A stretch of 64,000 nucleotides of DNA from a virus (IMGVR_UViG_3300025030_000039:60878-124877); one strand, 5' to 3'; counted from the first letter of the stretch, positions 2,151-62,653 are shown. Notes: generated from the sequence alone by a model not told the origin. A program made the numbers and translations.

Positions 2151-2164
2151 TATTATTTATTTTT

Positions 2165-6395: not shown

Positions 6396-6860
6396 TTAAC
6401 CTTCAAGATTTTGTGAAGCATTAATATCTCCAATATAAGCTTCTACATCATCATCTGTCAATTCAGCTTGTTTACCGTTTTCTAATTGTACTAAATATTT
6501 TCCTGTATCTTCACTCCATGAAATAATATCGCCTACTAATCCATCAGCTTTACATTTAACTTTAGATCCAGGTATTAAATGACTTTCACCAACCAATTTT
6601 TGAGTTTTAGCTCCTAATCTATTATTATCATCATTAACTATAACTTCAATTTCAGTTTCATTAAATTGTTGTTGTCCACTATCATCTAAACTAACATTAT
6701 ATTTTTTAATATCTTCACTCCAAGAGTTTAAATATCCTAATTGACCACTAGCTTTTACTTTTATTCTAGTACCTGGTGTTATAACATCGGCTTCTTTAAC
6801 CAAATGCTGATTAGTTTTAACGTCGTTTACAAACTCTTCAAATAATTTTACGTATTCCAT
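6396..6860 (-). CDS. Hypothetical protein with a leader-like N-terminus (MEYVKLFEEFVND) and two tandem copies of a roughly 50 aa small beta-domain.
   Basis: Internal duplication TRIKVKASGQLGYLNSWSEDIKKYNV / SKVKCKADGLVGDIISWSEDTGKYLV. Confidence 0.45.
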   Translation of the reverse strand: MEYVKLFEEFVNDVKTNQHLVKEADVITPGTRIKVKASGQLGYLNSWSEDIKKYNVSLDDSGQQQFNETEIEVIVNDDNNRLGAKTQKLVGESHLIPGSKVKCKADGLVGDIISWSEDTGKYLVQLENGKQAELTDDDVEAYIGDINASQNLEG

Positions 6861-6880: not shown

Positions 6881-7264
6881 TTATTTGTATTCTGTTTTAA
6901 ATTCATTAAACGTTTTAATGAATTTTAATTTCTTTTTTTTATTTAATAGTATATCACCTGATCCTAGTATTTGTTTTGAAAAATTAGTTGACAAATCAGG
7001 ATCACCAGGCAATTTAACTGAACCTATTCCATTAACATTAATTGGAGTACTTGCTACTGGGGCAGTGCTTGTAATAGAAGTATTTTCATTAGCTTTTTTC
7101 ATTTCTTCATCAGTAGTATGCGCATAATCTTTTATTTCTTTTATAGTCATTCCATTTGCAGCATCAATTACTTCTTTACTAACTTCTGATTCTTTCTTTT
7201 TACCTTCTTTATATGCTAAAACTATATTAAAAAAAGCTCTCTGTTTTACACTAGTTGATGGCAT
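6881..7264 (-). CDS. Hypothetical protein.
   Basis: ORF only; N-terminus MPSTSVKQRAFFNIVLAYKEGK. Confidence 0.4.
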   Translation of the reverse strand: MPSTSVKQRAFFNIVLAYKEGKKKESEVSKEVIDAANGMTIKEIKDYAHTTDEEMKKANENTSITSTAPVASTPINVNGIGSVKLPGDPDLSTNFSKQILGSGDILLNKKKKLKFIKTFNEFKTEYK

Positions 7265-7272
7265 AATATAAT

Positions 7273-7557
7273 TTATTTTGTCATATCTATTCCTAATAAA
7301 TCTTTAGCTAATTTTAATGCATCAGGTTCATCTACTATTCCACTCTTAACTAATTCAGAATAGTATTTAGGATTTTCTGTTAAATGATCGATTGCAACTT
7401 CTTTTGCTGTTGATTTATCACTAGAGTGTTCAGCTTCTACTGCAATTCCAACTTCTAATTCATTTTTATCGATAGTTGATTCATCAGTATCATCACCTTT
7501 ACCTCCAATTAAAACTTGTTCATTAATAAATTCTAAATAAGTTTTTACAAATTCCAT
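7273..7557 (-). CDS. Hypothetical small acidic protein with a leader-like N-terminus (MEFVKTYLEFINEQ).
   Basis: ORF; N-terminal similarity to the MKYILEYEEFLLE leader family. Confidence 0.4.
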   Translation of the reverse strand: MEFVKTYLEFINEQVLIGGKGDDTDESTIDKNELEVGIAVEAEHSSDKSTAKEVAIDHLTENPKYYSELVKSGIVDEPDALKLAKDLLGIDMTK

Positions 7558-7567
7558 ATTATTGTTT

Positions 7568-9529
7568 TTATTTATATATTTCTTTTTTTAATTCATCATA
7601 AAATGAATGTAATACTGTTGGAACCATAACTTTAAATACTTCATAATTATCATCTTTAATTGCAGTTCTAACAACCGATGCACTAATATCTTCATCTGCT
7701 CTTTTAATTTCAAATAACTCAAAATCATTTAGCATATTTAATTCATCTTTATATTTATCTATTTGTATTTTGAATGTTTTTAATCTATCTGTACCTACTC
7801 CCCATTTTAGAGGTTCATATTCAGGACGTAATGAATTAAATATTTTATCTACTGATGCTGAATCAATAATAAATACATTTTCTAGAAACTCATAATTTAA
7901 TTTTAGTGCATCAAACATTCTTAATTGTAATTCTTTATCGAAAGGATTTAAATCTTTATCTTGTGAAGTCTCTTTACCTTTAACTATAAAAATTATAACA
8001 GGGAGTTTATTTGTCATATGTAATTTATTTAAAACTTTTATATGACCTAATGTAAAAGGTTGAAATCTTCCTACAAATATATTTACTTGTTGTTTTCCAT
8101 GTTCTTTATCTTTAATATTTAATGCTTCGAATGTTGAATCTTCTAATTTTTCTATATTACTTTCTAATTTATTTAATTCTTTTTTTAAAAAATCAATAGT
8201 TGGAATATTTATAGGATTACTTTCTATTGTTATAGTTATACTATTTTCAGAAACGTCTTCCTCTTCTTCATATATATTATCATTCATTTCTTTCATAATA
8301 ATATAATCACCAAAAGTTTTAAATGAATCATCAGATTCAGCTTCTGTTGCATCTTTTATTTTTCCTATTATAATATTAATTTCTTTAATAATAGGTTCTG
8401 TTAATACATTGGTAGTCTTTTTTCTCTTTTTTCTTAATGATGATAAAAATATTTTAAATAAATCTTTTAATTTATCTGATGAATTTAAATATTCTTTTGT
8501 CTTTTGATTTTTAATTAATTCAATATTTAAATCAAATTCTTTCTTTTTTGCAAAACTTGGAGTTTCAAAATCTATATCTTTGTATTTATCTATATTTTTA
8601 TTAACATACTTATTAAATATATCACAAATAATTTCAATATATCTTTCATCAGGTTTAATAGATAAAATGCCAACAGATAAAACGGATTTATTTCTTTCTA
8701 TAAATTCAATTATATCTAATAATATTATTGAATAAATATCTTTAATAGTTCTAGTATCTTGTACTTTATTTTTCTCTTGTATATTTTTTATAATTGGATC
8801 TATTATTTTTCCAATATATGTTTTATCATTGTGCTCATCAAAAAATTTAAATACAATTGAATCTATAGGTTTAATTAAATCATTATTTAATGTAGTTTTT
8901 TTAAGAGATGGATTTAAAATACTTATAATATATTTAGTAAATGAATCTGTTCCAAATATATCACCTAAAGAATCTTTATCAGTTTTTATAAAATCTTTTA
9001 TTTGATTTTTTTGCTTATCATTTAATACACCTTCAAAAATAATAGGAGGACCTTGTACTTCTAGTTTATTAGCCCATTCATTTAAAATTTTAGAATTATC
9101 TATAACTTTAATTGTTTTATTTTGATTATTTTTTACCAATATATGTGTTAATACTAAATTATTAGTAGGTAAATTATCATAAACAATATTTACTGGACTT
9201 TTATTTACAAAATATTGAAAACTAAATCTCCAATTATCTGGTATTTCTTTTAAAACAGATTTATCAATTTTATTAACAAAATGATTTCTAACAGATTCAT
9301 AATATATCATTAATGTTCTATCTATAATACTTAATGGAATTCTATCATCCCTTTTAAATATATCTATTGGGTCATTAACGATATTTTTTCTATCAGCATC
9401 TATTTTTTGAACATATACTGTAGATCCATCTAAATTTTCACTTATAATCGTATATTTTTCGAGTAATTCTTCAATAAACTTATTACCCTGTTCTTTATAA
9501 ATATCTTTTATTTCTTGTATTCCTGCCAT
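7568..9529 (-). CDS. 653 aa protein. The C-terminal roughly 190 aa form an NMN/NaMN adenylyltransferase-like (HxGH cytidylyltransferase) domain. The N-terminal roughly 450 aa are unassigned.
   Basis: NIFVGRFQPFTLGHIKVL matches the GRFQPFHxGH signature of NadM/NMNAT-type adenylyltransferases. The N-terminal part contains ISENLDGSTVYVQK, weakly reminiscent of the KxDG nucleotidyltransferase motif but lacking the Lys. Confidence 0.55.
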   Translation of the reverse strand: MAGIQEIKDIYKEQGNKFIEELLEKYTIISENLDGSTVYVQKIDADRKNIVNDPIDIFKRDDRIPLSIIDRTLMIYYESVRNHFVNKIDKSVLKEIPDNWRFSFQYFVNKSPVNIVYDNLPTNNLVLTHILVKNNQNKTIKVIDNSKILNEWANKLEVQGPPIIFEGVLNDKQKNQIKDFIKTDKDSLGDIFGTDSFTKYIISILNPSLKKTTLNNDLIKPIDSIVFKFFDEHNDKTYIGKIIDPIIKNIQEKNKVQDTRTIKDIYSIILLDIIEFIERNKSVLSVGILSIKPDERYIEIICDIFNKYVNKNIDKYKDIDFETPSFAKKKEFDLNIELIKNQKTKEYLNSSDKLKDLFKIFLSSLRKKRKKTTNVLTEPIIKEINIIIGKIKDATEAESDDSFKTFGDYIIMKEMNDNIYEEEEDVSENSITITIESNPINIPTIDFLKKELNKLESNIEKLEDSTFEALNIKDKEHGKQQVNIFVGRFQPFTLGHIKVLNKLHMTNKLPVIIFIVKGKETSQDKDLNPFDKELQLRMFDALKLNYEFLENVFIIDSASVDKIFNSLRPEYEPLKWGVGTDRLKTFKIQIDKYKDELNMLNDFELFEIKRADEDISASVVRTAIKDDNYEVFKVMVPTVLHSFYDELKKEIYK

Positions 9530-9560: not shown

Positions 9561-10826
9561 TCAAAAACGAAGCAAACCCATAATTTGGTTTACAGGAGAA
9601 AAGGATCCCGTTAATTTATATCTCTTTGAATTATAAACAAATACAATTCCTTCAGAAGGCATTATTGAATCAAATCCACCTAAAGCTTCTATTTTATTTA
9701 AGTTTAATTGTAATACATCTAATAATCCTTTTCCACCAGTATTTTCTATTTCTTTAATCTTTTTATCTAAATTATCTTTAATAACTTTCACTGTATCATT
9801 AGAATTAACGGATAAAAATCCACTTATATTTTTTAAAACAGTAACACCTAATTCTGTAAAAATACTCTCAAATTTATCTCTTATATTTTGTCTAATATTT
9901 TTAATTGAATCAGATTTTTCTAGCATTTTAATAAATCCTAAATTATTTAGTTCTAATTCTTTTATTGATATAATAGTTCCATTTTTAAAAGCTAAACGTT
10001 TAGCTGCTCGTTCAAACACATCTCCGTCAAAATCAGTTTCATGTTTAGCAATACTATTTAAAATAATTTTTTTCCAAAATTCTATATGCCATTCTTCTAA
10101 TGTAGAATTATCATTCATATCCATTGAATCTCTAATATCATCAATTTTTTTATGAAAATAATTTTGTTTAACAGAAAAATCGTTATGCTTAGAAATATTT
10201 AAATAATTTGGTTCATGAACTTTAAATATGCTATTAATACTTTTATTTACTAAATTTATTACATCAACAATATTTTTAGATATTTTATTATTTTCATCAA
10301 TTGGATTTCCATCAAAATCATAACTTATAAATCCATGCATAATTATTTTAGGTGAATCATATACAATAACATTTGGAGAACTTGGATATATTATTTCAAT
10401 ATTCATAAACTTTTTACCTGTTTCAAATTCAACATCTAATATTGATTGATCTATTTTAGAAAATATTTTATTTAATTCGGTTATAGCTAATGAAAATGCT
10501 TTAGATAATTCTCCTCTATTTTCAAATTTTTGTATTAATTGATCTACTGTTAAAGCATCTTTACCATAATTTTTTAAATGACCTTTATTTCTTGCTGTAA
10601 ATAATTGTCCATGTTTCCATGTTATTGATAAAGCATATCCATCCAATTTTTCAGATATTAATTCTTCTTTATCTAAATATCCTCCAAGTGCTCTATCAAC
10701 TATCGTTTTTAAATCTTTAAATGTTAAACTATAATCTTCAAAAGGATGATTTAAATGTCCGTAACTTCCACCTTCTAAAATTAAATTTTCATTTAAAAAT
10801 TCTTCATAAGATTTTAAAAATTTCAT
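9561..10826 (-). CDS. RNA ligase, Rnl1-like, 421 aa, with a leader-like N-terminus (MKFLKSYEEFLNENL).
   Basis: Motif I EKLDGYALSI (KxDG); FMNIEIIY resembles motif III; SEGIVFVYNSKRYKLTG resembles motif IV (EGxV) plus the motif V Lys. Confidence 0.6.
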   Translation of the reverse strand: MKFLKSYEEFLNENLILEGGSYGHLNHPFEDYSLTFKDLKTIVDRALGGYLDKEELISEKLDGYALSITWKHGQLFTARNKGHLKNYGKDALTVDQLIQKFENRGELSKAFSLAITELNKIFSKIDQSILDVEFETGKKFMNIEIIYPSSPNVIVYDSPKIIMHGFISYDFDGNPIDENNKISKNIVDVINLVNKSINSIFKVHEPNYLNISKHNDFSVKQNYFHKKIDDIRDSMDMNDNSTLEEWHIEFWKKIILNSIAKHETDFDGDVFERAAKRLAFKNGTIISIKELELNNLGFIKMLEKSDSIKNIRQNIRDKFESIFTELGVTVLKNISGFLSVNSNDTVKVIKDNLDKKIKEIENTGGKGLLDVLQLNLNKIEALGGFDSIMPSEGIVFVYNSKRYKLTGSFSPVNQIMGLLRF

Positions 10827-12270: not shown

Positions 12271-12870
12271 TTATATATCACCCGTTCGTATCAAATATTC
12301 CTTAATTATCTCTAATGTAGTTATTGATGGTCTCCAATATAATTTTATTTTACTTTCAATATTATCTAATAATGTATCATAATATTCATTTTTATTATGT
12401 ATTCTATTAGGAGCTGATGATATCCAATATTCTATATCATCAAAATTAAATGTTGATTGTGCACCATATAATATATGAAATTTATTTTCTAATTCTGTAT
12501 AAGCTTTATTAAATTTAATATCTTTTAATCTATTATTTAGTCTAATTAATTCGTCATATAATATTTCTAATGTTTTATCGACATCATGTTGTGTATTATT
12601 ATCTGCAATTGTGTGATACCTCAAAAAATTTCCTATTTTATCCCTATTTATATCAAATGGTATTTTCCAATCCGTATGAATATTAAATCCAATTTTTTTA
12701 CTTACTTCTTTGGGAGCATAATTTTGTTTTAAATCTATAGGAAACTTTCTTCCATTAACCAGCCATTTAAATGTTCCATCTTGTGATTTATTCACAATAT
12801 CTTTAACAAAAGATTCATCACTAATATTTGATTTATTTAAAAATTTTTCATATTCTAATATAAATTTCAT
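12271..12870 (-). CDS. Hypothetical protein with a leader N-terminus (MKFILEYEKFLNK).
   Basis: ORF; member of the conserved N-terminal leader family. Confidence 0.45.
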   Translation of the reverse strand: MKFILEYEKFLNKSNISDESFVKDIVNKSQDGTFKWLVNGRKFPIDLKQNYAPKEVSKKIGFNIHTDWKIPFDINRDKIGNFLRYHTIADNNTQHDVDKTLEILYDELIRLNNRLKDIKFNKAYTELENKFHILYGAQSTFNFDDIEYWISSAPNRIHNKNEYYDTLLDNIESKIKLYWRPSITTLEIIKEYLIRTGDI

Positions 12871-12895
12871 TATAAATACTTATTTGATTTATATA

Positions 12896-14410
12896 TTAAA
12901 ATTTTATATTTTGCATAGTGTATGAAAATTTTTGTTCTTTATAAATTTCTTTTCTAGCTTCAGCATGCTTAAACAAATAATTAACAAAAGTTTTGCCGTT
13001 TTCTAGTTTATATCGCATATCATCAACAAAATCAATTATAATTAATTTATCTTTTCTATTATGCAAACGTAATCCACGTCCGATACTTTGACGAATTATA
13101 ATTTCTGATTTAAAACTTTCTGTAAAAAATACATTATGTATATTAGTTATATTAATTCCGGTCGAAAAAGTTCCAAATGAAGCAACTAATAATCGTTTAT
13201 CCCCTACTTCCATTAATTTTTTATAATCTTCTCTTAAATCTTTATCTGTACCACCATCAACATAATATACATCTCCTTCATAAATATTTCTTAATAAATC
13301 ATAAAGTTTTTTACCATGTTCTATTCTATGAAATAATATTAAACTATTTTTAGTTGATTTTTTAATTACATTAGCAATAAATTTTAATCTCTTATTACTT
13401 TCTGCTACATAATCTTGTTCTAATTTAAAAACTTTTTTCCTTTCATCTTCATTAGATGATTTAGATAACCATAAAAATGCCTCTTTTTGTTCATCTGAAA
13501 CATAATCCATATAAATCATTTTTACTTCACATGGACTTATAAATCCTTTATTAATTAAATAATCTGCACTAATATTTGTAATTAATGGACCTGTATTAGA
13601 CATTAAATTATATCTATCTATTGTTTGTGGTTTAGGAATAGTTCCACTTACCCCGAAACGATAATCACAATGCCAACACCTATCTAGTATTTTACAGATT
13701 GACGAACTATTTGCTTTATGTGTTTCATCTATTATAACAATATTAAATTGTTTAAAATATTCTTCATCTTTTTTAACTAATGATTGATATGTTCCTATTA
13801 CGAGATTAGTATTTTCTTTTAATTTCATTCCAGAAAATATCTGTTGTATTTTAAGTGTTACTTTTTCATCAGTATTATAATCATTAAAATCTTCAGTTGC
13901 TTGTAATACTAAAGATACATTTGGAACTATTAATAATATTTTTTCAGCTACATCATATTCTAAAAGATATGCAATAACCATAAACACTATTAACGATTTA
14001 CCGGCACTAGTAGCTAATTCAGCTAAACATCTTCTATAACGTAATATTTTATATGCGGTATCAACTTGATAATCACGCGGCTTTTTTTCGTTACCTTCAA
14101 AAAATTTATCAACCCATTTATAAAATTCTTCTTTTTCAATATCTATATTGAATAATTTTATAGTATCAATTAATTTTAATGGTAAATTATGCTCTTTAAA
14201 AACTTCCATAACTTCCATCCATAAACCAGAAGGAAGTTTATTACCCTTAACAAAACAAACGTCCCCACTCCACACACCTCGCTTCACAAGTGGATGAAAT
14301 CTCCAATTATCTATACGTTTAGTAAAACTAAGCTTAAGTTGTTCATATTCATGTTCAGTTGCTTTAGTTATGTATAAATATCTTCTATCAGGACTTAATT
14401 GTAATTCCAT
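12896..14410 (-). CDS. SF2 DNA helicase (UvsW/DEAH-like).
   Basis: Walker A ATSAGKS, motif II IIDETH, motif III SGT and motif VI QSIGRGLR. Confidence 0.8.
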   Translation of the reverse strand: MELQLSPDRRYLYITKATEHEYEQLKLSFTKRIDNWRFHPLVKRGVWSGDVCFVKGNKLPSGLWMEVMEVFKEHNLPLKLIDTIKLFNIDIEKEEFYKWVDKFFEGNEKKPRDYQVDTAYKILRYRRCLAELATSAGKSLIVFMVIAYLLEYDVAEKILLIVPNVSLVLQATEDFNDYNTDEKVTLKIQQIFSGMKLKENTNLVIGTYQSLVKKDEEYFKQFNIVIIDETHKANSSSICKILDRCWHCDYRFGVSGTIPKPQTIDRYNLMSNTGPLITNISADYLINKGFISPCEVKMIYMDYVSDEQKEAFLWLSKSSNEDERKKVFKLEQDYVAESNKRLKFIANVIKKSTKNSLILFHRIEHGKKLYDLLRNIYEGDVYYVDGGTDKDLREDYKKLMEVGDKRLLVASFGTFSTGINITNIHNVFFTESFKSEIIIRQSIGRGLRLHNRKDKLIIIDFVDDMRYKLENGKTFVNYLFKHAEARKEIYKEQKFSYTMQNIKF

Positions 14411-18113: not shown

Positions 18114-19832
18114 TTATTTATATTCGATATCATCAAATAAAATAGGTATACGTTTCTTGAATTCATCTAAAAGTGGACGCATTAATTCTCTCATTTGAGG
18201 ATGGGCTGCATTTGCAACTCTTAGTTTAAAAATATGTCTCCAATCTCTAATATTAGTTGACATATTTATTTCAGTCTTTAATGAATTTGGTAATACTGAT
18301 CTTGCTTGTTGTGGAGACCATTTGTAATCATTCATTAATTTATTATAATATTGTTCAGATTTTAACATTGATGTTAACCATTGTACATTTACCGAAGGAT
18401 AATCAAAATCTTTTGCTAAAGCATTAACATCAAATTCTGTATAAATATGTTCTTTAATATCTAACCATTCTGGTATAATAAAAGTAATATTATCATCTTT
18501 ACTATAATTACAATAACGGGTACTATTATGAACTATAAATCCATTAGCAATATAATTAGAATATGGTTCTTTCATTTCTATATCATAAGTATCTTCTACA
18601 CCAATATATGTAATACTTATAATTTCATCTATTATTCCTTTAACACCTATATGCCAACCGTGATGTAATAAATTATGACAACTACAGCATACTTTTGTAA
18701 GATTTATATCTTCATTATTGTTTAGATCTTTATCTTTATGATGAACTTCTAATTTAATATTACTTCCACATAATTCACATGAAAATATATTTTCTTTCTT
18801 AAATCTTGCTTCATCTCTACCTCTCAGTCCGCCACTCCAATTAGAATTATCTTCTCCAAATCCATTGTTATGATGGTTAAGCCTTAACGAATTTGCTTGC
18901 CTTTTAACTGATACATTATTATCCTCGGTTAATCCTTTATTCCAGACAACTCTCCCATCATTGTACTGTTTTTGTATTGTATTTTTAATTTTAATATATG
19001 AATCAGCAGTATGATTTTTATTGTACTTATCTTTATCTTTATCATTTTTTCGTTTAACAAAAATATTAAGTGTTTGAAGTTTAGTAAGAATTGTTCTATA
19101 TGGAATAGAAAATTCTTCACTAATTTCCGTAGGAGATAACCCAACTATATTATATAATCTAATTAATTCATTATCAGATAACGTGCATAAATTAGGTCTG
19201 CCATTAACTATAACCTTACTACCAATACTTAAATTTCGTAATTCTTCATATTTGTGAGTACTTGTCAAAAATCTATGAGTATTAGTACACTTTATTTTAT
19301 ACCCCAATTTAGTAACAACTTCAAATATTACATTATTACCCTTAAAGAATATAGCATTAAAATGATTAGATACTATTTCATTATTTTCATTTATACTTCG
19401 TAAAGTTAATGTCTTATTATGAGTTCTGTCATAATTTGTACCATGTTCTTGTCTTTCATATAATTCTTTGATAGTAATATTTTTATTAGAGGTTGACTTA
19501 ATAATAGTATCACCTGTTACACATTCTTGGGCAAAACTAGCTATTCTGTGTCTAACTAATTCATGACTAACTCCTCTATCACATGTAAATTTAACAGTAA
19601 TATTACCACCGAATTCTAACATTGCTTCGTGACCCATTTTAATAAGTTTAGCAATAAGTACTCTTGCTGATATAGCATCTAAATCATATAATTCACCATT
19701 AGGTGTTCTATGACCTATTTCTATTTTACCTTCGCTTTTATAACAAGTTCTAGCCGCTATTTCAATTTCTTTTAAAATACTTTCTCCATCAATAGGAGTT
19801 AATATTTCATATTTTGATTTGATTAAATTCAT
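18114..19832 (-). CDS. thyX: FAD-dependent thymidylate synthase ThyX, interrupted in-frame by a 333 aa intein that contains an HNH endonuclease motif.
   Basis: Joining the exteins gives RHRIASFAQE|STRY, the ThyX RHRxxSxxxxSxRY signature. The intein begins CVTGDTII and ends GFIVHN followed by Ser. Inside it are VHHKDKD...CCSCHNLLHH (HNH) and a helix-turn-helix-like segment. Confidence 0.85.
   Translation of the reverse strand: MNLIKSKYEILTPIDGESILKEIEIAARTCYKSEGKIEIGHRTPNGELYDLDAISARVLIAKLIKMGHEAMLEFGGNITVKFTCDRGVSHELVRHRIASFAQECVTGDTIIKSTSNKNITIKELYERQEHGTNYDRTHNKTLTLRSINENNEIVSNHFNAIFFKGNNVIFEVVTKLGYKIKCTNTHRFLTSTHKYEELRNLSIGSKVIVNGRPNLCTLSDNELIRLYNIVGLSPTEISEEFSIPYRTILTKLQTLNIFVKRKNDKDKDKYNKNHTADSYIKIKNTIQKQYNDGRVVWNKGLTEDNNVSVKRQANSLRLNHHNNGFGEDNSNWSGGLRGRDEARFKKENIFSCELCGSNIKLEVHHKDKDLNNNEDINLTKVCCSCHNLLHHGWHIGVKGIIDEIISITYIGVEDTYDIEMKEPYSNYIANGFIVHNSTRYCNYSKDDNITFIIPEWLDIKEHIYTEFDVNALAKDFDYPSVNVQWLTSMLKSEQYYNKLMNDYKWSPQQARSVLPNSLKTEINMSTNIRDWRHIFKLRVANAAHPQMRELMRPLLDEFKKRIPILFDDIEYK
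18525..19523 (-). mobile_element. Intein (Hint domain plus HNH homing endonuclease) inserted in thyX.
   Basis: The Cys codon at 19521..19523 starts the intein and the His-Asn codons at 18525..18530 end it, followed by the +1 Ser extein residue. Confidence 0.8.
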
Positions 19833-24469: not shown

Positions 24470-24847
24470 TTATTTGGCTTTTTTACTACTACCACTTCCT
24501 ATAGCAGCACCTATAGCTGTACCAACTAATCTGCTAGTTAAAAGGTCAAAAAATACTCCTTTTTCAATTCCTAATATTTTAGCAATTAGTTTTCCAACTG
24601 ATTTACCTAATGCAAATCCAACTAAACCCCCAAATATTGCTCCTAAAAATCCTTCATTAATTTCATCAAAATTAATTTCCTCTAATTTTTTTCCTTCAAA
24701 TTGTTTGACATACAAATTAATTGCTTCATCAATTTTATTTTCTAACTCTTCTGTTAGCACTATATCTTCATTAATATTTTCATTAACGAATGAATTAAAT
24801 GTTTTAAATTCATTATCATTATTTTTATATTCTATAAAAGTTTCCAT
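24470..24847 (-). CDS. Small glycine-zipper membrane protein.
   Basis: GFLGAIFGGLVGFALG...LVGTAIGAAIGSG. Confidence 0.4.
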   Translation of the reverse strand: METFIEYKNNDNEFKTFNSFVNENINEDIVLTEELENKIDEAINLYVKQFEGKKLEEINFDEINEGFLGAIFGGLVGFALGKSVGKLIAKILGIEKGVFFDLLTSRLVGTAIGAAIGSGSSKKAK

Positions 24848-24877
24848 TATTAAATTCTATTTATGTTATATATTTTT

Positions 24878-42611: not shown

Positions 42612-43712
42612 TTATTTTGATTCTTCTTTCCATGCATCTATTGCAGCCTGCATTGTTTCATAATCTTCTTTATGTTCTTTATAAAATTTCTCGGCTTCAG
42701 CTGCATCATTTAAAGATAATTTATATGTTCTACTTATAATTAAATGATTAACGCATTTATTCAAAAATACTTTATAATTGTCACTTTCTCTTAATGCAAG
42801 TGCAGCATCACCTATTAAACTATTATATCTATCCCATACTTCTTTTACTTCTCTTTCTTTAATATTACTATCTAATAGTTTTAAATCATCTTCCATATCA
42901 ACAAAACTAAATGCTTCTATTGCAGTAAATCCATATTTTTGTTGTAGGTCAATCCATCGTTGACTATGTTTATAAGGATCTGAACCTATTTGAGATTTTC
43001 TTTCAGATGATCTTTCTCTATGTAATGAATTATAAACATTTTGTAAAACACTACTAACTTCGCCTGGTTTATCTTTCATTAATTCATCAAGTTTTAATAA
43101 TATAGGACTTATGTTTTTTTCATATCTATTATAATCTTCTGGATTACCTGAAGTTCTACCTCTTGTAGCATCATTAACATCCTTATAATCTTTTTTAATT
43201 TGTCCATCTGCCATTTTATCAAAATTTCCATATGCAAATTTTTCATCATCAGTTGCAGTATCGGTCTTTAATGCATTAGCATCTTTAATTCCTTTTAATT
43301 GTTCTCCCCTAAAAACTTTTCTTAAATATACATTAGTGCCTGCTATTTGCTGCGCATCCTTTTCCATTTCGTTTGCTGTATCTAAAATTGGATCATTTTT
43401 CTTTTTAATTATTTGATCTAATTTAGATATATCAAAATATTCATTAGCTAAAATCATTTCTCTAACTTTACGTCTAGCTGCATCAGTATTTTGAGCTGCT
43501 TCTAATCTTAGTGCATTTACTTTCTTCATTATTTTTCTAATCTTAGGAGCAGTAAACATCCAATTTCCTATTTTACTAAAAATACCTTCTTCAATTAATT
43601 CCATTAAAATTTCATAATCTTCAATAGATTCAATTAAATAATTTTCATTATTTTTAATTTCAATTTTTTTAGAAAAATTTTCATATTTATTAATATATTT
43701 CATTTCTTTCAT
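42612..43712 (-). CDS. Hypothetical protein, probably structural or assembly.
   Basis: ORF. Confidence 0.4.
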   Translation of the reverse strand: MKEMKYINKYENFSKKIEIKNNENYLIESIEDYEILMELIEEGIFSKIGNWMFTAPKIRKIMKKVNALRLEAAQNTDAARRKVREMILANEYFDISKLDQIIKKKNDPILDTANEMEKDAQQIAGTNVYLRKVFRGEQLKGIKDANALKTDTATDDEKFAYGNFDKMADGQIKKDYKDVNDATRGRTSGNPEDYNRYEKNISPILLKLDELMKDKPGEVSSVLQNVYNSLHRERSSERKSQIGSDPYKHSQRWIDLQQKYGFTAIEAFSFVDMEDDLKLLDSNIKEREVKEVWDRYNSLIGDAALALRESDNYKVFLNKCVNHLIISRTYKLSLNDAAEAEKFYKEHKEDYETMQAAIDAWKEESK

Positions 43713-54259: not shown

Positions 54260-54583
54260 TTAAATTTTTATAAAGTGATTATTGTATTTAGTTAATTCCG
54301 TTATATTTTTTTCTACCTTTCTACAAATTAATCCAAATTCTTCTAAGTCATTTTGATTAAGTTTAAAAAATTCTCCTTTAATTTGTTTATTTGAATAATT
54401 TCTTTTTAAATAAGCTTCAATTTTTGTAGCAAATTTTGTATTGTATTCTAATATTACTTTCCATTCTCCAGGATTACCGGTTGTCATTCCTTTAATTCTA
54501 TCTTCCATATTTTGACCAGTCCAACCTATTTTATATTGAACTTCTTCTCCTATTATATTTTCTATTAAATAAACTTTTTTCAT
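54260..54583 (-). CDS. Small GIY-YIG-superfamily (T5orf172/MUG113-like) domain protein.
   Basis: KKVYLIEN...YKIGWTGQNMEDRIKGMTTGNPGEWK...KGEFFKL matches the YKIGxT...R...GEWF pattern. Confidence 0.5.
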   Translation of the reverse strand: MKKVYLIENIIGEEVQYKIGWTGQNMEDRIKGMTTGNPGEWKVILEYNTKFATKIEAYLKRNYSNKQIKGEFFKLNQNDLEEFGLICRKVEKNITELTKYNNHFIKI

Positions 54584-54984
54584 CTACTAGGTATTGCTAA
54601 ATCTCCATAATATAAAACTTCTTTTTCATTTGGTATTTCTATAAATCCATTCTTTTTATAAAAATTAAATTGTTTCTTAGAATCTGCTCCATATCCACCA
54701 GGAGTAACATATATTGATTTTGGATCATATTTTTTTATTATTTCTTTTATAGCTATTTGTAAAATTTTAGATCCTACTCCTTTTCCTTTTCCTAATACAT
54801 CTGGAATATTTACTCTATTAATATACCATTCACAGTTATTAATATTTGAAATTTCACATACTCCTAAACTAAAATTTTCTTTATAATATACATTGACATA
54901 TTCCTTTGTTGAAACAATAGTTATATTGTTAGATTCACTTAATGTTTCGCTTTTAAATAATTTATATTCTTTTATGTATTTCAT
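54580..54984 (-). CDS. GNAT family N-acetyltransferase with a leader-like N-terminus (MKYIKEYKLFKSE).
   Basis: LGKGKGVGSKILQIAIKEI matches GNAT motif A (R/Q-x-x-G-x-G/A) and FYKKNGF matches motif B. Confidence 0.55.
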   Translation of the reverse strand: MKYIKEYKLFKSETLSESNNITIVSTKEYVNVYYKENFSLGVCEISNINNCEWYINRVNIPDVLGKGKGVGSKILQIAIKEIIKKYDPKSIYVTPGGYGADSKKQFNFYKKNGFIEIPNEKEVLYYGDLAIPSR

Positions 54985-55001
54985 TTTTCATGTTTTATTT
55001 T

Positions 55002-55532
55002 CTATAAAAATCCAAAATCATCAGCATTATACAAATGCTCGTATTTATTTTTTATTTTACTACTAACACTTAACTTTCTTATAAATTCATACTTTAAATA
55101 TAAATTGGGATCTTCACTCAACCAATTATCAACTATACTATCTATATCATTTCCAATTATATCTAATTGCTCTATCTTTAAAAATTCTTTTGGTAATTTT
55201 TTAAGATTATTATTATTTAAACTTAATATTCTTAATTTTTTTAACTGACTTATCTTTTTAGATATCAACGTTAATTTATTATTATTTAAATCTAATACGA
55301 CTAAATTTTTAAGTTTTAATATGTCATCAGGTACTGATGACAATTGATTATCAAATAAATAAAGTTGTATTAAATTTTTAAATTTATATACTCTATCTGG
55401 AATAGTTGTTATTTGATGTCCGTTTAAATATATTACATCATCATTTATATTTTTTTCAGCTATAATACTCATAGCTATATCAGGTCCTTTATTTTCTAAT
55501 AAAAATTCTTCATATTCTAAAATGTATTTCAT
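55002..55532 (-). CDS. Leucine-rich repeat (LRR) protein with the leader N-terminus MKYILEYEEFLLEN.
   Basis: Five or more LxxLxLxxNxL repeats: LIQLYLFDNQLSSVP, LKNLVVLDLNNNKLT and LKKLRILSLNNNNLKKLP. Confidence 0.7.
   Translation of the reverse strand: MKYILEYEEFLLENKGPDIAMSIIAEKNINDDVIYLNGHQITTIPDRVYKFKNLIQLYLFDNQLSSVPDDILKLKNLVVLDLNNNKLTLISKKISQLKKLRILSLNNNNLKKLPKEFLKIEQLDIIGNDIDSIVDNWLSEDPNLYLKYEFIRKLSVSSKIKNKYEHLYNADDFGFL
55494..55532 (-). repeat. Copy of the 39 to 41 nt leader-encoding DNA repeat, one mismatch relative to the other two copies.
   Basis: ttctaataaaaattcttcatattctaaaatgtatttcat. Confidence 0.7.
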
Positions 55533-56140
55533 TTTCCACGTCTTATATTAGTTAATATTCTCAAATCATTTGCACTATGTTGTGTATAATTTAAATTAAA
55601 TTTCTTAGAAAATATTTTAAAATCAAAAGGATCAGAATCTCCGCCACTATGAATTATTGTATACTTTAAAATTAATTCTGCCAAGTCTTTAGATGTACTA
55701 GCGTCAATTATTTTTCTTTCTAAATATAATCTTATTTGATTATCCATTAATACACTATCTAAAGCTACTAATAATTGTTGCCTACTTCTTTCAGGCCCTA
55801 TATCATCAAATCTTTGAAGCAATCTCATACTAGTTACTTTTTCTTTGAAAGGTCTTATTTGTTTTGTATAATATAACAAAGTAACTTCTAATTTATTTTC
55901 ATCTTTGTTTCCTTCTTTTTCTTTTGCTTTTCTTAAAACTTCATCAAATTCTTTTTGCGATGCAGTTCCTTTAACAGTATTAGGAGTTCTAAATGAGTTA
56001 CTTGATTTTGATTTATTTTTATCATTAGAAGTGTTTTTAAACTTATTCGCATATTCGGGTGGAATATAACGTCCACTATATCTTATTTTTTCATCATCTG
56101 CTTCTAATAAAAATTCTTCGTATTCTAAAATGTATTTCAT
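55529..56140 (-). CDS. Hypothetical protein with the leader MKYILEYEEFLLEA.
   Basis: ORF; leader family member. Confidence 0.45.
   Translation of the reverse strand: MKYILEYEEFLLEADDEKIRYSGRYIPPEYANKFKNTSNDKNKSKSSNSFRTPNTVKGTASQKEFDEVLRKAKEKEGNKDENKLEVTLLYYTKQIRPFKEKVTSMRLLQRFDDIGPERSRQQLLVALDSVLMDNQIRLYLERKIIDASTSKDLAELILKYTIIHSGGDSDPFDFKIFSKKFNLNYTQHSANDLRILTNIRRGK
56100..56140 (-). repeat. 41 nt leader-encoding DNA repeat, identical to the copy at 58273..58313.
   Basis: gcttctaataaaaattcttcgtattctaaaatgtatttcat. Confidence 0.8.
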
Positions 56141-56195
56141 ATGCTTACTCTATTTTAATTATATATTTTGAATATATAATTAAAAATAGAAGGTT

Positions 56196-57197
56196 ATGAA
56201 GTTTATATTAGAGTATGAAGAATTTTTGTTTGAGAATACTAGATATGTAGATGCTGAAAAAGACTTTTTAAAAACTAAAAGAATAGATAAAAAGACTTGG
56301 GATTATTTAATAACAAATATAAGTAATAAATATGTTTATTGGGCTGTAAGAGAGTATGTTTTAAATAAAGAAAATAATAGAATTGGTAATAAATTAGAAG
56401 ATTATGTTAATATATCACGAATGTATGATATCAAAGGAAATACATTTGCTAAAAATGAAAGAGATTTATATAATTTTTCAGATTTTAATAAAAATAACGA
56501 TTATACATTTAATAAAGTAAAAGATTTATATAATATTAATAACAGTTTAAAAATCAAACCAAAAGATATATTTAAAACTAGAACAGATTTAGTTGAAATA
56601 GGAAGTAATATTTTATATGAAGATAAAGAAGGTAATATTGTAGTTGAAGCATTAAATAGAGCTGCTGATTTATATTGGGGAAGTTGGTATAAAAAAAGAG
56701 AAGGTGCATTAGTTATAGATAACTGTATGACAAGTGAACCTTCATCTGATATAAAATATTTAAAAGATGTTCCAGAGGGTGGTAGACTTTATATTATATT
56801 ACCTAAAGAACCGATAATTATATTAAGAAGATTATTTATAATGGAATATGAAGATGCATGGGGATTCGTAGGTCATCAAGATTTTTCGATTGAAGAAACT
56901 AGTTATAAAAATATGTTAATTAAAAAATATCATGCTTTATATAAAGAATTAAATAAAAAATTAAATTATAAAAATGAAGAATTATATAATATAATTAAAA
57001 GACTTTTTGAGTTAGATAGTAAACATGTAATCTATGATTACATTTATAATGGTTATAATGAATTAGATATTAATATAGAATTTAATGAATTTATTAAACA
57101 ATTAAACAATAATTTTAATCATATACCATCATATATGTCAGAGTATTTTATAGAATTATATAATTATTATCATGGATTAACTAATAAAATAGTTTAA
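56196..57197 (+). CDS. Hypothetical protein with the leader MKFILEYEEFLFEN. It is the only plus-strand gene in the window.
   Basis: ORF; leader family member. Confidence 0.45.
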   Translation: MKFILEYEEFLFENTRYVDAEKDFLKTKRIDKKTWDYLITNISNKYVYWAVREYVLNKENNRIGNKLEDYVNISRMYDIKGNTFAKNERDLYNFSDFNKNNDYTFNKVKDLYNINNSLKIKPKDIFKTRTDLVEIGSNILYEDKEGNIVVEALNRAADLYWGSWYKKREGALVIDNCMTSEPSSDIKYLKDVPEGGRLYIILPKEPIIILRRLFIMEYEDAWGFVGHQDFSIEETSYKNMLIKKYHALYKELNKKLNYKNEELYNIIKRLFELDSKHVIYDYIYNGYNELDINIEFNEFIKQLNNNFNHIPSYMSEYFIELYNYYHGLTNKIV

Positions 57198-57296
57198 AAA
57201 TTAATTGAACATAAGTAATAAAAATAGAAAATGATATAAAAAAGTATTTACTTAAAGGTTATAATAAAATATATTTTAAATTATAACATTTAAAAA

Positions 57297-58313
57297 TTAT
57301 TTTCTTTGTTTGTATTTATTTTTTATATAATCATTAATATCTTCTTCACTCATACCTTTACGTCTTAAAATATTTTTCATAACATGTGTACGTTTTTCTT
57401 CTTTACTCATATTTTTTAAATTTACTGTTGGTGCTGGACCAGATTTAATTTGTTTATATTTAAATTTAATATAGTCGTTAATCTCTTCATCACTTGCGCC
57501 TTTACGTCTTAAATGAGTTTTAATAGTAGATATATTGAAATTTGATCTTTCTTCATCATTAAGAGATGAAGAAAGATTATTAAATTTACTCATAGTGTAT
57601 TCATTATATTTTTTAACGACTTCTTTAGCCATATTTAATGTCGGTTCATTAGCTAACCAAACATATAAATTATGTTTGGTTTTAGAAAATTCATGCTTAT
57701 CTATAACTTTAGAACTAAAATATTGTTCTACTTCTTTTAATGTTTTAGGATCTTTAGATAAAGAATATGAATCATAAAGCTTTAATATTTTAGTACATAT
57801 AATATTAAATTTAGGACTTAAATTAAAAAATACACGGCTTGGATATGCATTACCATTGTTTTGTTCTATTTCTCTGTATATAGTTTGGAGTGCAAGAAGT
57901 ACCGCTTCTTCTTGCGATAATCCATCATATTTAGGAGATGTATCTTTAAGTATATTACGTCTATCTATAAAATCGCTAGAAAGTTCATTTAGTATTTTTT
58001 CAGTTAATTCTTTAGTAGGGGCTTCATTTGTTTTTAAAGAATATAATGGTTTATTAGGCACTAAATCGCTATTTAAAAAATATTTAAATATTAAACGTAA
58101 TATTGCAGCATAATTTTTAATATTTTCTTTTTTAAGAAACTCTATAGGTTTAAACTCTTCGTTACTTAAATAAATTTTATTTGATTTTTTAAAAAGTTCA
58201 TATATTTTGGTTAAACTTTTGTATAAATCATTTATATTTTGTTGTTTATTTTTTTCTTTACGACCTGTATTAGCTTCTAATAAAAATTCTTCGTATTCTA
58301 AAATGTATTTCAT
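57297..58313 (-). CDS. Hypothetical protein with the leader MKYILEYEEFLLEAN. Its C-terminus contains two copies of a (E/D)EINDYIK(F/N)KYKQ motif.
   Basis: ORF; leader family member. Confidence 0.45.
   Translation of the reverse strand: MKYILEYEEFLLEANTGRKEKNKQQNINDLYKSLTKIYELFKKSNKIYLSNEEFKPIEFLKKENIKNYAAILRLIFKYFLNSDLVPNKPLYSLKTNEAPTKELTEKILNELSSDFIDRRNILKDTSPKYDGLSQEEAVLLALQTIYREIEQNNGNAYPSRVFFNLSPKFNIICTKILKLYDSYSLSKDPKTLKEVEQYFSSKVIDKHEFSKTKHNLYVWLANEPTLNMAKEVVKKYNEYTMSKFNNLSSSLNDEERSNFNISTIKTHLRRKGASDEEINDYIKFKYKQIKSGPAPTVNLKNMSKEEKRTHVMKNILRRKGMSEEDINDYIKNKYKQRK
58273..58313 (-). repeat. 41 nt leader-encoding DNA repeat, identical to the copy at 56100..56140.
   Basis: gcttctaataaaaattcttcgtattctaaaatgtatttcat. 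Confidence 0.8.
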
Positions 58314-58693
58314 TTATTTAATTCATTTAAGTTAAAGTATCTAAACCCTCTAAATCCTTTCATAGGAATTGGCTCTATTTCATTAAATTGTCCTGATCTT
58401 TCTATAAATTTACCACTCCAATTTTTTCCTGTAGTAGAACATGTAAAAGATTTTTCCTTTATTCCTGTTATTTTCATCCATCCCACAACATTACCATTAT
58501 AATTTAGGTAACATTTATTTCCTACTATATCTTTTTTAGGAAGAAATGGAACTTTAAAATTTAAATTATTAGATCCATTTTTAACAGAATCTAATTCTTT
58601 TCTATATTCATTCCAATCTATATTAGAAGGTATAGTTATTATTATATCACTCTTATCAGTAACAACTTCTTCATATTCTTTTATATACTTCAT
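58310..58693 (-). CDS. Hypothetical protein with the leader variant MKYIKEYEEV.
   Basis: ORF. Confidence 0.4.
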   Translation of the reverse strand: MKYIKEYEEVVTDKSDIIITIPSNIDWNEYRKELDSVKNGSNNLNFKVPFLPKKDIVGNKCYLNYNGNVVGWMKITGIKEKSFTCSTTGKNWSGKFIERSGQFNEIEPIPMKGFRGFRYFNLNELNK

Positions 58694-58707
58694 TACTTAA
58701 ATTATTT

Positions 58708-59340
58708 TTAGATAAATTTTATGTTTAAATATCTCAGTTCTGCTGCTTTAGCAAAATCTCTATCTGTTGATTTATCACCTATTATTCTTGAATTAGCTTT
58801 ATCTATTTTTCCATATTTTTCTATAGTTTTAGTAATAGCTCCTATATTAGGTTTTCTCATAGGATCGGTTCTTTTAGTTGTTATACTATAGAAATAATCT
58901 AATAATGGAATTCCTTTTGCTGCTAATGATTTTTTAATTTTATTCATTTTATATTTAAAATCATCTTCATTAACATATCCTGATTCAATTCCTCCCTGAT
59001 TAGTTACAATAATTATTTTATAATTTTTTTTAACCATTATTTTTAAATATGCAATACAATTACTTTTTAATATCCAATCATTTTTATCCTCTGAAAATGT
59101 TCCTCCTGATGCAGGTTCAATTAATGTATGATCTAAATCTACAAAAATATATTTATTACCAAAAATTTCAGTTCTTATATCATCTTTATTTTCAGTATCA
59201 TATGTTATTTCCTTTTGAATATCTAGAGTTTTTTCCTCTGCATCTTTCTTTATAATTTTTTTCTTTTTCTTTCTTCTAAAAAGTCTTTGAAAAAAATTAT
59301 CTTCATTCAAAAAATCATCATATGTTTGTATATATTTCAT
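58708..59340 (-). CDS. HAD-IIIA family phosphatase (HisB-N/GmhB/PNK-phosphatase-like) with the leader variant MKYIQTYDDFLNE.
   Basis: IFVDLDHTLI (DxDxT motif I), IIVTNQGGIESGY (motif II, IIIA-type) and RIIGDKSTD (motif IV). Confidence 0.65.
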   Translation of the reverse strand: MKYIQTYDDFLNEDNFFQRLFRRKKKKKIIKKDAEEKTLDIQKEITYDTENKDDIRTEIFGNKYIFVDLDHTLIEPASGGTFSEDKNDWILKSNCIAYLKIMVKKNYKIIIVTNQGGIESGYVNEDDFKYKMNKIKKSLAAKGIPLLDYFYSITTKRTDPMRKPNIGAITKTIEKYGKIDKANSRIIGDKSTDRDFAKAAELRYLNIKFI

Positions 59341-59351
59341 ATTTTTATAAT

Positions 59352-59675
59352 TTAAGTTAATCCACTATGAATTTTATCATATATAGGTTTTTGTAAAATT
59401 TTCCAATTAATATCTGGATTCTTTTCTTTGATTTTATTTAAAATTTTATCTATTCTTTTATTTAATTCATTAGAAGGTTCATCATTTTTCCAATAATCAT
59501 CATTTAAAGAAACATTATATATTTTATCTGCTTGCATTTCATCTTCTTTAGTAACTACTATATTTTCATAATCTGGTATTAACTCTTTAGCATATTTTAT
59601 AAATTTATCATTTTGTTCATTTAGTTCTTCGGAACTACATGCTATATACTCTTCATACTCTTTTATATACTTCAT
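59352..59675 (-). CDS. Hypothetical protein with the leader variant MKYIKEYEEYIA.
   Basis: ORF. Confidence 0.4.
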   Translation of the reverse strand: MKYIKEYEEYIACSSEELNEQNDKFIKYAKELIPDYENIVVTKEDEMQADKIYNVSLNDDYWKNDEPSNELNKRIDKILNKIKEKNPDINWKILQKPIYDKIHSGLT

Positions 59676-61818: not shown

Positions 61819-62346
61819 TTAATTTAATATATTGTATAAGTTTTTAATTTTTGTTATTAATTCATTATTTGATTCTTCTATTTTAAAATTTTCATTATAA
61901 TGAGTTAATAAATCATATTTAATATCAAAATCAAAAGATTCATCATAAGATGCTTCTTTTTTTCTTTTCTTGGCCAGAGCGGCTATAGCAGCAGTACCTC
62001 CAACAACAGCAGCTCCAACACCTAATTTTTTCTTTAAACTCCAAGGTCTTTTAATATTTTTACCACTTTGTTTAACTAAATTTTTAACTGCAGCTTTAGA
62101 TTTCATTTTTCTATATTGTGCATTAGTCATTTTTTTACCATCAACATTGATCAATTCTTTACTTTGTTTTTTAATTTTAGTATTATCAAATAAACCTTCT
62201 TCTATAGTAGCATCTAAAAGTTTTTCAAATTCTACTTTATCTTCTGATTCATTATAAATATTAAATAATGAGTTAACAAATAATTCTTCATCAACTATAA
62301 TAGAATCTATTTCATTATAGTCATTTAAATCTAATAAGTATTTCAT
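61819..62346 (-). CDS. Membrane-anchored protein with the leader variant MKYLLDLNDY and a Gly/Ala-rich hydrophobic segment followed by KKRKK.
   Basis: GVGAAVVGGTAAIAALAKKRKKEA; paralogous to 23578..24429. Confidence 0.4.
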   Translation of the reverse strand: MKYLLDLNDYNEIDSIIVDEELFVNSLFNIYNESEDKVEFEKLLDATIEEGLFDNTKIKKQSKELINVDGKKMTNAQYRKMKSKAAVKNLVKQSGKNIKRPWSLKKKLGVGAAVVGGTAAIAALAKKRKKEASYDESFDFDIKYDLLTHYNENFKIEESNNELITKIKNLYNILN

Positions 62347-62347
62347 A

Positions 62348-62653
62348 TTATTGTATCGTTTGTTTTATTTTATCTATTGTTTTTTGTCCATTAGCTTTTA
62401 TAAATTCTGCATTTTGTAATGCTTTTTCTTTTTCTTTTTGAGCTAATATATCAGCCTTTGCTTTAATTGCTAAAGCTTTTTCATTTCCTCTTTCTTTAGC
62501 TCTTGTTACTTTATCGTCTATAACTTGTTTAATTTTTTCGATATCTTGTTCATTTAGATTTTCTTCTTTAGAAAAAAATTCATCTATTTCCATATTTGAT
62601 GTAATAAATTTTTCGTATATTACATGTTGTTCATAAGTTAAAAGTATTTTCAT
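62348..62653 (-). CDS. Small coiled-coil protein.
   Basis: ORF; N-terminus MKILLTYEQHVIYEKF. Confidence 0.35.
   Translation of the reverse strand: MKILLTYEQHVIYEKFITSNMEIDEFFSKEENLNEQDIEKIKQVIDDKVTRAKERGNEKALAIKAKADILAQKEKEKALQNAEFIKANGQKTIDKIKQTIQ

Follow-up and report, generated by a model that had tools for sequence, protein, structure and literature searches.

In bacteriophage T4 the internal proteins are diverse defence proteins that have only a capsid targeting sequence (CTS) in common (PMC3012670), and the first 10 residues of IPIII, MKTYQEFIAE, are enough for packaging (PMC9026906). The T4 prohead protease, gp21, acts inside the prohead and cuts after L/I-x-E; residues 4 and 7 of the CTS govern targeting and residues 8 and 10 processing, and with Asp at position 10 a protein is still targeted but no longer processed (PMC9026906). 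Propeptides of phiKZ-like giant phages, whose proteases are exemplified by phiKZ gp175 and SPN3US gp245, have also been proposed to be CTS-like (PMC5694885, PMC9026906). Here we describe a 13-residue N-terminal leader found on many proteins of LR756500.1, an unannotated 462,018-bp genome (24% G+C) of an uncultured phage. The starting point was a 64,000-nucleotide stretch of this genome (IMGVR_UViG_3300025030_000039:60878-124877, bases 258381-322380 of LR756500.1), hereafter the window, for which an earlier note made from the sequence alone had proposed a capsid-targeting leader; positions are those of the window unless given as genome positions. We consider it probable that the leader is a greatly expanded T4-type capsid-targeting propeptide system.

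Membership was decided by a position-specific score built from the N-termini and applied to all 663 open reading frames (ORFs) of the genome. The score distribution is bimodal: 35 N-termini score above 11, to which one GTG-start gene is added, and all others score 3.2 or less, so that 36 of ~663 ORFs bear the leader. The consensus is M-K-[YF]-I-[KL]-[ET]-Y-E-[ED]-F-[LIV]-[N/x]-E-[S/A/N]. Alignment of the N-termini, which the earlier note had suggested as a way to define the motif and its putative cleavage position, gave a leader of 13 to 14 residues that ends in [LIV]-x-E and is followed by S, A or N in LR756500.1. Information content is maximal at positions 1-4, 7, 10 and 13 and falls to background level past position 14. 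Tyr is found at position 7 in 33/36 leaders, Phe at position 10 in 30/36, Leu, Ile or Val at position 11 in 32/36 and Glu at position 13 in 24/36. Inside genes, 8 of 129,601 positions score above 10 and none above 17.2, against 35 of 663 gene starts above 10 (the initial Met was not scored). Internal hits are rare and weak, and the leader is therefore specific to N-termini and probably not just an outcome of A+T richness. The peptide has neither hydrophobic nor signal-peptide character.

The window contains 12 clear leader genes and a marginal one (Table 1). The ORFs listed earlier are present where they had been placed (for minus-strand genes the coordinate used was the stop-codon end, the leader being encoded at the high-coordinate end), while the count of at least 14 carriers was borne out for the 12, marginally for 62348 (14.4) and not at all for 61819..62346 (MKYLLDLNDY), which scored 3.2 and was rejected. 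The array at 54.5-59.7 kb, which had been taken as the single diversification hotspot, proved to be one of about seven leader-gene clusters, though the largest; the clusters lie at genome 11.7-17.0, 180-182, 197.8-201.8, 264.8-271.3, 313.0-318.1, 322.4-323.4 and 455.0-455.7 kb, in addition to singletons.

The T4 sequence given in the earlier note is indeed the start of both ipII and ipIII (AF158101). When YQEFIAE is aligned with YEEFINE, the four best-conserved positions of the leader, Y7, F10, [LIV]11 and E13, fall on T4 CTS residues 4, 7, 8 and 10. We then ran a nine-column profile, built from the huge-phage leaders only, against every six-frame nine-mer in 54 kb of T4. Among 62,342 nine-mers it ranked the ipIII CTS first and the ipII CTS second, which bears out the likeness to the T4 CTS noticed earlier. 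The third-best match, M-L-LEFKQFLYE↓ASID (L011:19217, plus strand; arrows mark predicted cuts), lies in the uvsW / uvsW.1 region, where it appears to start the small UvsW.1 frame, and is probably coincidental.

To look for the leader elsewhere, a degenerate DNA pattern for M-K-[YH]-I-x-x-[FY]-E-x-F-x-N-E was scanned. It matched more than 120 IMG/VR stretches, among the matches listed, and gave only 4 matches in 596 Gb of bacterial and archaeal genomes. These scans succeeded where a search with 40-residue N-terminal pieces gave only 22 candidates, and where a profile search of 1.84 billion representatives returned 16 matches at E<=1e-3, most of them, by length, the query proteins themselves and four of them unrelated repeat proteins. 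Two samples of relatives were used: 129 IMG/VR loci pooled from three leader-pattern scans, among the matches listed, and 80 IMG/VR loci chosen by capsid-protein similarity alone (56-75% identity, out of at least 590 such loci). In the pooled loci 276 of 1,597 ORFs carry the leader, corresponding to 257 unique proteins with a median length of 146 residues that fall into 160 body clusters; in the capsid-selected loci 47 of 1,144 ORFs do so. The pooled loci are syntenic with the LR756500 replication module, with one slot between conserved genes holding different leader genes in each contig, a pattern of cassette-like turnover. The nearest relatives of LR756500.1 are 634-735 kb uncultured phages, Lak megaphages and Bacteroidota jumbo phages. 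At a greater distance, looser LKTFE[NG]F / LKTYEEY motifs occur at variable offsets near many N-termini (LR756502 233886-275343 and LR756501 70278-111693), and two ORFs of Tenacibaculum phage PTm1 carry xKLYxxISEN[FL][IV]xE, which suggests lineage-specific versions of the same tag.

A gp21-type prohead protease, which the earlier note had wanted sought in the rest of the genome, was found among head genes arranged in the T4 order of portal, protease-scaffold and capsid protein. The T4-type portal (genome 228664..230346; Pfam Portal_T4, 2.3e-70) is followed by a 632-residue protein (genome 226725..228623) whose first ~165 residues match Peptidase_S77 (PF03420; 6.3e-11, above the cutoff) and whose remainder is a long repeat-containing, scaffold-like region, and then by a Gp23-family capsid protein (Pfam, 8e-34). 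His76 and Ser131 of the S77 protease align with His85 and Ser140 of T4 gp21, which we take to be the catalytic residues of that enzyme. Across 48 distinct homologues of the protease-scaffold protein two predicted sites are invariant, V168-N-E↓S/A and I/L602-N-E↓S/N, the former at the end of the protease domain and the latter ~28 residues from the C-terminus, in variable flanks. The capsid-protein propeptide carries a predicted H-x-L-N-E↓S/N site in 74 of 78 homologues, and the relatives' leaders end in F-[IVL]-N-E, with A, S or G as the next residue in 164 of 257. Because the same motif recurs in the protease-scaffold protein, the capsid propeptide and the relatives' leaders, the tag ends in what looks like the prohead-protease site of this clade. 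In PTm1, a cultured distant relative, the capsid protein likewise contains I-N-E↓N/S sites, and the annotated 'prohead core scaffolding protein and protease' contains many [LIV]-x-E↓S/A/G/N sites, several with Asn at P2. In the scaffold-like region of the LR756500.1 protein, residues ~259-413, a conserved [LIV]-x-E recurs every 14 residues (259, 273, 287, 301, 315, 371, 385, 399 and 413); such a repeat might serve at once as a coiled-coil scaffold and as a series of protease sites.

Leader genes are also embedded in the head operons of relatives, where they lie between the protease-scaffold and capsid genes, with a conserved one directly after the capsid gene. PHROGs gave nothing for the leader genes beside the capsid gene. 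One leader gene of these operons is the orthologue of LR756500 gene 213395..214183 (4e-57), and the gene at 42612..43712 of the window is a paralogue of the one that follows the capsid gene (5e-22, L144:5547-6308); a homologue search with 42612..43712 returned only the self-match.

Conservation of the first 40 nt could also be read at the level of nucleic acid, as a translation-initiation or mRNA-stability element or a gene-conversion hotspot with a functionless peptide. Such a reading draws on the three nearly identical DNA copies that had been reported at about 40 nt and are real: the 56140 and 58313 leader copies are identical over 41 nt and the 55532 copy has a single synonymous difference from them (TAT/TAC), a pattern that fits recent exchange at the leader. 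It also draws on an enrichment of rare G/C-ending codons in leader codons 2-6, with AAG at 32% against 10% genome-wide, TAC at 36% against 8% and GAG at 56% against 8%; over the 36 genes, codons 5-6 often spell AAGGAG (e.g. genome 11706, 12212 and 13446). This enrichment may reflect mRNA-level selection or the common ancestry of one cluster. Against it, synonymous codons vary at kept residues (K2, AAA 23 and AAG 11; Y3, TAT 16 and TAC 9; I4, ATA 18 and ATT 11), which argues for selection on the peptide. The plus-strand 56196 leader differs from neighbouring copies at 8 of 39 nt and keeps 11 of 13 residues, and contigs ranging from 23 to 41% G+C show the same peptide pattern, in which Y/F and I/L/V replace one another conservatively. 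Conservation moreover stops exactly at the protease-type site, and diverged orthologues keep the pattern, as does the ATP-grasp orthologue in relatives, which retains the leader. We regard an explanation at the nucleic-acid level as very unlikely.

The proteins behind the leader are highly varied, as had been claimed. Clustering of the 36 bodies by BLASTP (E 1e-3) gave 24 unrelated singletons and one 12-member cluster, which consists of six leucine-rich repeat (LRR) proteins and others joined mainly by a common C-terminal tail. The domains recognised are LRR_8, PNK3P phosphatase, ATP-grasp R2K_2, DUF2201 metallopeptidase plus VWA, and DUF5661; the remaining bodies had no domain match, and NCBIfam gave nothing meaningful for 10 window leader proteins. 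Two of the four bodies named in the earlier note, the LRR domain and the HAD phosphatase, were recovered with significant Pfam matches (Table 1). The RNA ligase found weak fold-level backing. The 9561..10826 body has no Pfam, PHROG or PDB sequence match, and its KLDG motif was found by inspection for a KxDG adenylation motif; yet RNA or DNA ligases account for each of the top 23 Foldseek PDB matches of its AlphaFold2 model (predicted local distance difference test, pLDDT, 82), with E values between 3e-3 and 0.1 and a template modelling (TM) score of ~0.2. The GNAT acetyltransferase at 54580..54984 was rejected as a family assignment, with Acetyltransf_7 at 19.4 bits against a Pfam cutoff of 27 (0.0014); together with a PDB N-acetyltransferase match at 0.012 it is a suggestive lead only.

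Modularity of the leader bears on a further explanation, in which all these genes belong to one fast-evolving multigene family whose N-terminus is the sole recognisable part, kept for a structural reason internal to the protein. Twelve of the 36 do form a family with LRRs and/or the C-terminal tail, and the genes stand in tandem arrays. The remaining bodies, on the other hand, are different, well-defined folds. Metagenomic orthologues of the ligase-like protein start at a conserved GGAYGH box, some leaderless and some with other leader-like extensions (e.g. MNKIKTFDDFISE and MTFLSFNNYITES); since they occur with and without it, the leader is a modular add-on, and the ATP-grasp family too has leaderless members elsewhere. 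In the AlphaFold2 model of the 421-residue protein, residues 1-22 are the sole segment with pLDDT below 50, so the leader is predicted to be an appendage detached from the fold. A single family is the least credible of the explanations weighed here, and we give it hardly any weight.

Cargo in the relatives is equally varied. In a Pfam census of 150 leader representatives (loci L014-L133) most match none of the reported families, and single members match Tad3 (4.8e-22), a Thoeris inhibitor, and an Acb1/2H phosphoesterase (~1e-6), an anti-CBASS protein, with further single-member matches to Ferritin, cREC_REC, Zeta_toxin kinase, cytidylyltransferase and ATP-grasp. By analogy, the Tad3 and Acb1-like cargo parallels the T4 internal proteins (PMC3012670).

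Two classes of promoter-like motif precede the genes of LR756500.1. Class 1, RATATATAW, is found 13-35 nt upstream of the genes for capsid, protease, sheath and tube, of the giant putative structural genes and of many others, and resembles the T4 late promoter TATAAATA; class 2, TTATTATATTTAC, lies before ~60 small genes in the genome arms and is early-like. In the window RATATATAW is depleted, with 25 sites against 49.5 +/- 6.4 expected, and occurs mostly just upstream of gene starts (e.g. 7572, 9554, 12889, 24866, 34267, 38815, 45841, 52757, 56159 on the minus strand and 56171 on the plus strand). It is found within 45 nt of 12 of 35 leader genes compared to 59 of 628 other genes (p = 1e-4). 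The nearest upstream motif is class 1 (ATATATAW) for 36 of 36 leader genes and class 2 for none, whereas for other genes the two classes stand at 372 to 256 (Fisher p = 1.5e-8). This distribution fits co-expression of the leader genes with virion genes.

Several observations weigh against a capsid-targeting function. Position 13 is not Glu in 12/36 leaders (4 Asp and 8 other residues), and therefore no cut is expected at the canonical place in these. The leader residues are favoured by A+T-rich codons, to which the internal-position control is only a partial answer, and the motif is too short for database-wide significance. Many leader genes lie in the replication module and encode enzymes: RNA-ligase-like, PNK phosphatase and ATP-grasp proteins, with a cytidylyltransferase in relatives, whose T4 counterparts are cytoplasmic and unpackaged. 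ATATATAW also precedes ribonucleotide reductase and other non-structural genes, which weakens the case for late timing. Some relatives have fusion proteins (L016:5200-5868, L024:203-1342, L100:6301-7440 and L123:1858-2700) in which a DUF3008-like domain (MPSTS..AQQ..) and a polybasic stretch are followed by an internal motif, LKKFKTFEEFxNE↓A/S, and a further domain, and T4 offers no precedent for internal targeting. In the literature we found no virion proteomic data for this uncultured clade. The DUF3008-like arrangement may be polyprotein-like or a relic of past recombination at the leader; the window's ORF at 6881-7264 stops straight after its leader-like motif, unlike the longer fusions of the relatives.

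These cytoplasmic-type enzymes, the internal motif and the spread of promoter class 1 beyond structural genes could be accounted for if the leader were a tag for docking to or recognition by some different shared partner, or for reaching a different destination, its likeness to a protease site making it a substrate only and the cargo staying unpackaged. It might bind a phage chaperone or an AAA+ system, address proteins to a compartment for replication or assembly, time their degradation, or serve as an inhibitory pro-peptide that is removed; the leader gene for a DUF2201 metallopeptidase plus VWA protein (genome 200318..201793) adjoins an AAA_5 ATPase. Such a partner would leave unexplained the match to the T4 CTS at its four functional positions and the presence of leader genes within head operons; the candidate cutting enzyme is a prohead protease fused to a scaffold, the T4 counterpart of which acts inside the prohead, and the peptide looks like no export signal. 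Another partner or destination is in our view unlikely. The leader was seen on no core replication enzyme or major structural protein of the genome, the former being an occurrence that the earlier note had named as counting against its proposal.

Under the capsid-targeting reading we infer the docking, cleavage, packaging, ejection and timing of the leader proteins as follows. They would be made from the promoter class of head and tail genes. The leader, probably an amphipathic helix with Y/F3, I4, Y7, F10 and L/I/V11 on one face, would dock on the scaffolding core, formed by the C-terminal part of the 632-residue protease-scaffold protein, during prohead assembly on the portal. Once the Gp23-type shell is closed, the Peptidase_S77 protease would cut after [LIV]-x-E13 and free the cargo inside the head, where it would remain with the DNA and follow it into the next host on ejection. 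A tag so short and modular would allow new cargo genes to be acquired by fusion, and cargo exchange by recombination within the common leader DNA could produce tandem arrays such as that at 54.5 to 59.7 kb.

More broadly, we judge it about evenly balanced whether an abundant uncultured clade of large and huge phages preloads its heads, via one readable tag, with a rapidly exchanged 'first-strike' proteome, the tag serving also as a recombination handle for cassette shuffling. If so, the load would comprise ~5% of the genes of this genome, delivered with the DNA before any phage gene expression, and would include RNA-repair-type and peptide-ligase-type enzymes and LRR binders, as well as anti-Thoeris (Tad3) and anti-CBASS (Acb1-like) proteins in relatives, which would suggest that the phages bring some of their counter-defences ready-made. 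Should the tag work as it does in T4, the packaged and injected proteome of an uncultured huge phage and its relatives could be listed from sequence alone, a task that ordinarily requires a host and purified particles. The list would provide candidate anti-defence or host-takeover proteins, 36 here and hundreds in relatives, most without a known domain. The 13-residue peptide would also be a portable tag, with matching protease and scaffold, for loading large capsids.

Table 1. Leader genes and associated features of the window (scores are from the position-specific leader matrix; ↓, predicted cut)
Position	Strand	Feature	Length (residues)	Leader	Score	Remarks
6396..6860	-	leader gene	154	MEYVKLFEEFVND↓V	20.3	
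6881..7264	-	DUF3008-like small protein (MPSTS...)		last 15 residues, LKFIKTFNEFKTEYK*, leader-like		
7273..7557	-	leader gene	94	MEFVKTYLEFINE↓Q	22.2	body DUF5661 2.3e-10; AATATATAA motif upstream, 7572-7580
9561..10826	-	leader gene	421	MKFLKSYEEFLNE↓N	29.3	RNA-ligase-like nucleotidyltransferase body, KLDG motif
12271..12870	-	leader gene	199	MKFILEYEKFLNK	25.6	position 13 not Glu; AATATATAA motif upstream, 12889-12897
24470..24847	-	possible member		METFIEYKNNDNE-FKTFNSFVNE↓N		core displaced to residues 14-24; promoter-like motif at 24866-24874
42612..43712	-	degenerate leader	366	MKE-MKYINKYENFSKK	8.2	
54580..54984	-	leader gene	134	MKYIKEYKLFKSE↓T	23.6	weak GNAT-like signal in body
55002..55532	-	leader gene	176	MKYILEYEEFLLE↓N	33.4	leucine-rich repeat body, LRR_8 1.5e-17; ends in conserved C-terminal tail KYEHLYNADDFGFL
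55529..56140	-	leader gene	203	MKYILEYEEFLLE↓A	34.7	leads minus-strand operon, 4 nt overlap with next gene; no Pfam or NCBIfam match in body
56159-56167	-	promoter-like AATATATAA motif, divergent pair				in 55 nt spacer between divergent leader genes
56171-56179	+	promoter-like AATATATAA motif, divergent pair				same spacer
56196..57197	+	leader gene	333	MKFILEYEEFLFE↓N	31.1	
57297..58313	-	leader gene	338	MKYILEYEEFLLE↓A	34.7	Lys-rich C-terminal repeats
58310..58693	-	leader gene	127	MKYIKEYEEVVTD↓K	24.6	Asp for Glu at predicted P1
58708..59340	-	leader gene	210	MKYIQTYDDFLNE↓D	30.4	polynucleotide-kinase-type 3' phosphatase, HAD superfamily (Pfam PNK3P 2.4e-21)
59352..59675	-	leader gene	107	MKYIKEYEEYIAC	28.2	position 13 not Glu; next L-N-E↓Q at residues 18-20
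62348..62653	-	marginal member	101	MKILLTYEQHVIY	14.4	

Around the leader genes, kilobases 1-22 of the window form a replication and nucleotide-metabolism module with ribonucleotide reductase, a DNA polymerase fragment, dUTPase, helicase, primase, SSB and thymidylate synthase, several genes of which are split by homing endonucleases: ribonucleotide reductase and the DNA polymerase fragment lie either side of a 647-residue homing endonuclease (306-5523), and an HNH insert lies inside thymidylate synthase (18114-19832). Elsewhere in the genome, three separate ORFs match the large terminase (genome 193332-197824) and a 599-residue endonuclease-like ORF follows the capsid gene (genome 223125-224924). 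Between 25 and 53 kb the window holds very large ORFs of up to 1,789 residues, taken as putative structural genes from their size and common upstream motif. An alternative genetic code, as in the related Lak phages, was considered and set aside, since the standard code (code 11) gives 91% coding density, with ~663 non-overlapping ORFs of at least 50 residues. Just beyond the window, a 50-residue leader ORF, MKYIKDYNDFINEA..., and, downstream of it in a different frame, ...PDHLINADDFGFLDN* (genome 322391..~323000, window 64011 onward) probably represent one gene with leader and tail that has been frameshifted, either as a pseudogene or through an assembly error.

About 13 leader proteins end in an acidic-aromatic tail, K-Y-E-H-L-x-N-A-D-D-F-G-F-(F/L)-D-N* (window 55002-55046; genome 11706..17016, 124308, 180972, 197835, 198758, 331856, 411169 and 461001), which is present on only two ORFs without a clear leader and resembles the C-terminus of eukaryotic ribosomal stalk P-proteins. 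The NADDFGF tail is absent among 2,283 ORFs of related contigs; it therefore looks lineage-specific, and we rejected it as part of the general leader system.

Among known systems, the closest is the T4 CTS, carried by IPI, IPII, IPIII and Alt and removed by gp21. Both are short N-terminal peptides on otherwise unrelated proteins, with a core K-T-Y-x-E-F-I-x-E (MKTYQEFIAE in T4, MKYI-K[ET]YEEF[ILV]NE here) that ends at a site of the form L/I-x-E↓small residue; both genomes encode a Peptidase_S77 protease, a T4-type portal and a Gp23 capsid protein, and both carry very diverse cargo at variable loci. The system described here differs in that the peptide has 13 residues rather than 10, with Asn strongly preferred at P2 in relatives, and in that protease and scaffold form one protein, the scaffold part being long and containing 14-residue repeats. 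It has ~36 predicted carriers per genome, compared to a handful in T4; its cargo includes sizeable enzymes, LRR proteins and proteins with membrane segments, and in some relatives' fusion proteins the motif is internal.

The phiKZ-like phages are also very large and load many head proteins that are trimmed after Glu by a distant gp21 homologue. They are not close relatives of LR756500.1, and unlike the leader their propeptides are mostly longer than 100 residues and do not form one common short tag; their cleavage motif is S/A-x-E, as opposed to L/I/V-x-E here. Encapsulin cargo-loading peptides are a functional analogy only: a short terminal peptide directs diverse enzymes into an HK97-fold shell, but these peptides are C-terminal and uncleaved, bind the shell protein and not a scaffold, and neither DNA packaging nor ejection plays a part.

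At the level of gene organization, the T-even internal-protein loci were reportedly described by Repoila et al. in 1994 as tandem or syntenic slots with different small genes that have only the leader in common. The relatives' slot between conserved replication genes, with its differing sets of leader genes, is similar, but the scale here is far larger: a partial sample of 257 proteins divides into 160 body clusters, and each genome has several arrays. Our literature search turned up no publication that connects capsid targeting sequences with this clade or with huge phages known from metagenomes. If the leader acts as proposed, the T4 capsid-targeting principle would extend to a distant lineage with the largest known phage genomes; that principle is known, and what is of interest here is the scale, the cargo and the predictability of the injected proteome of uncultured huge phages.

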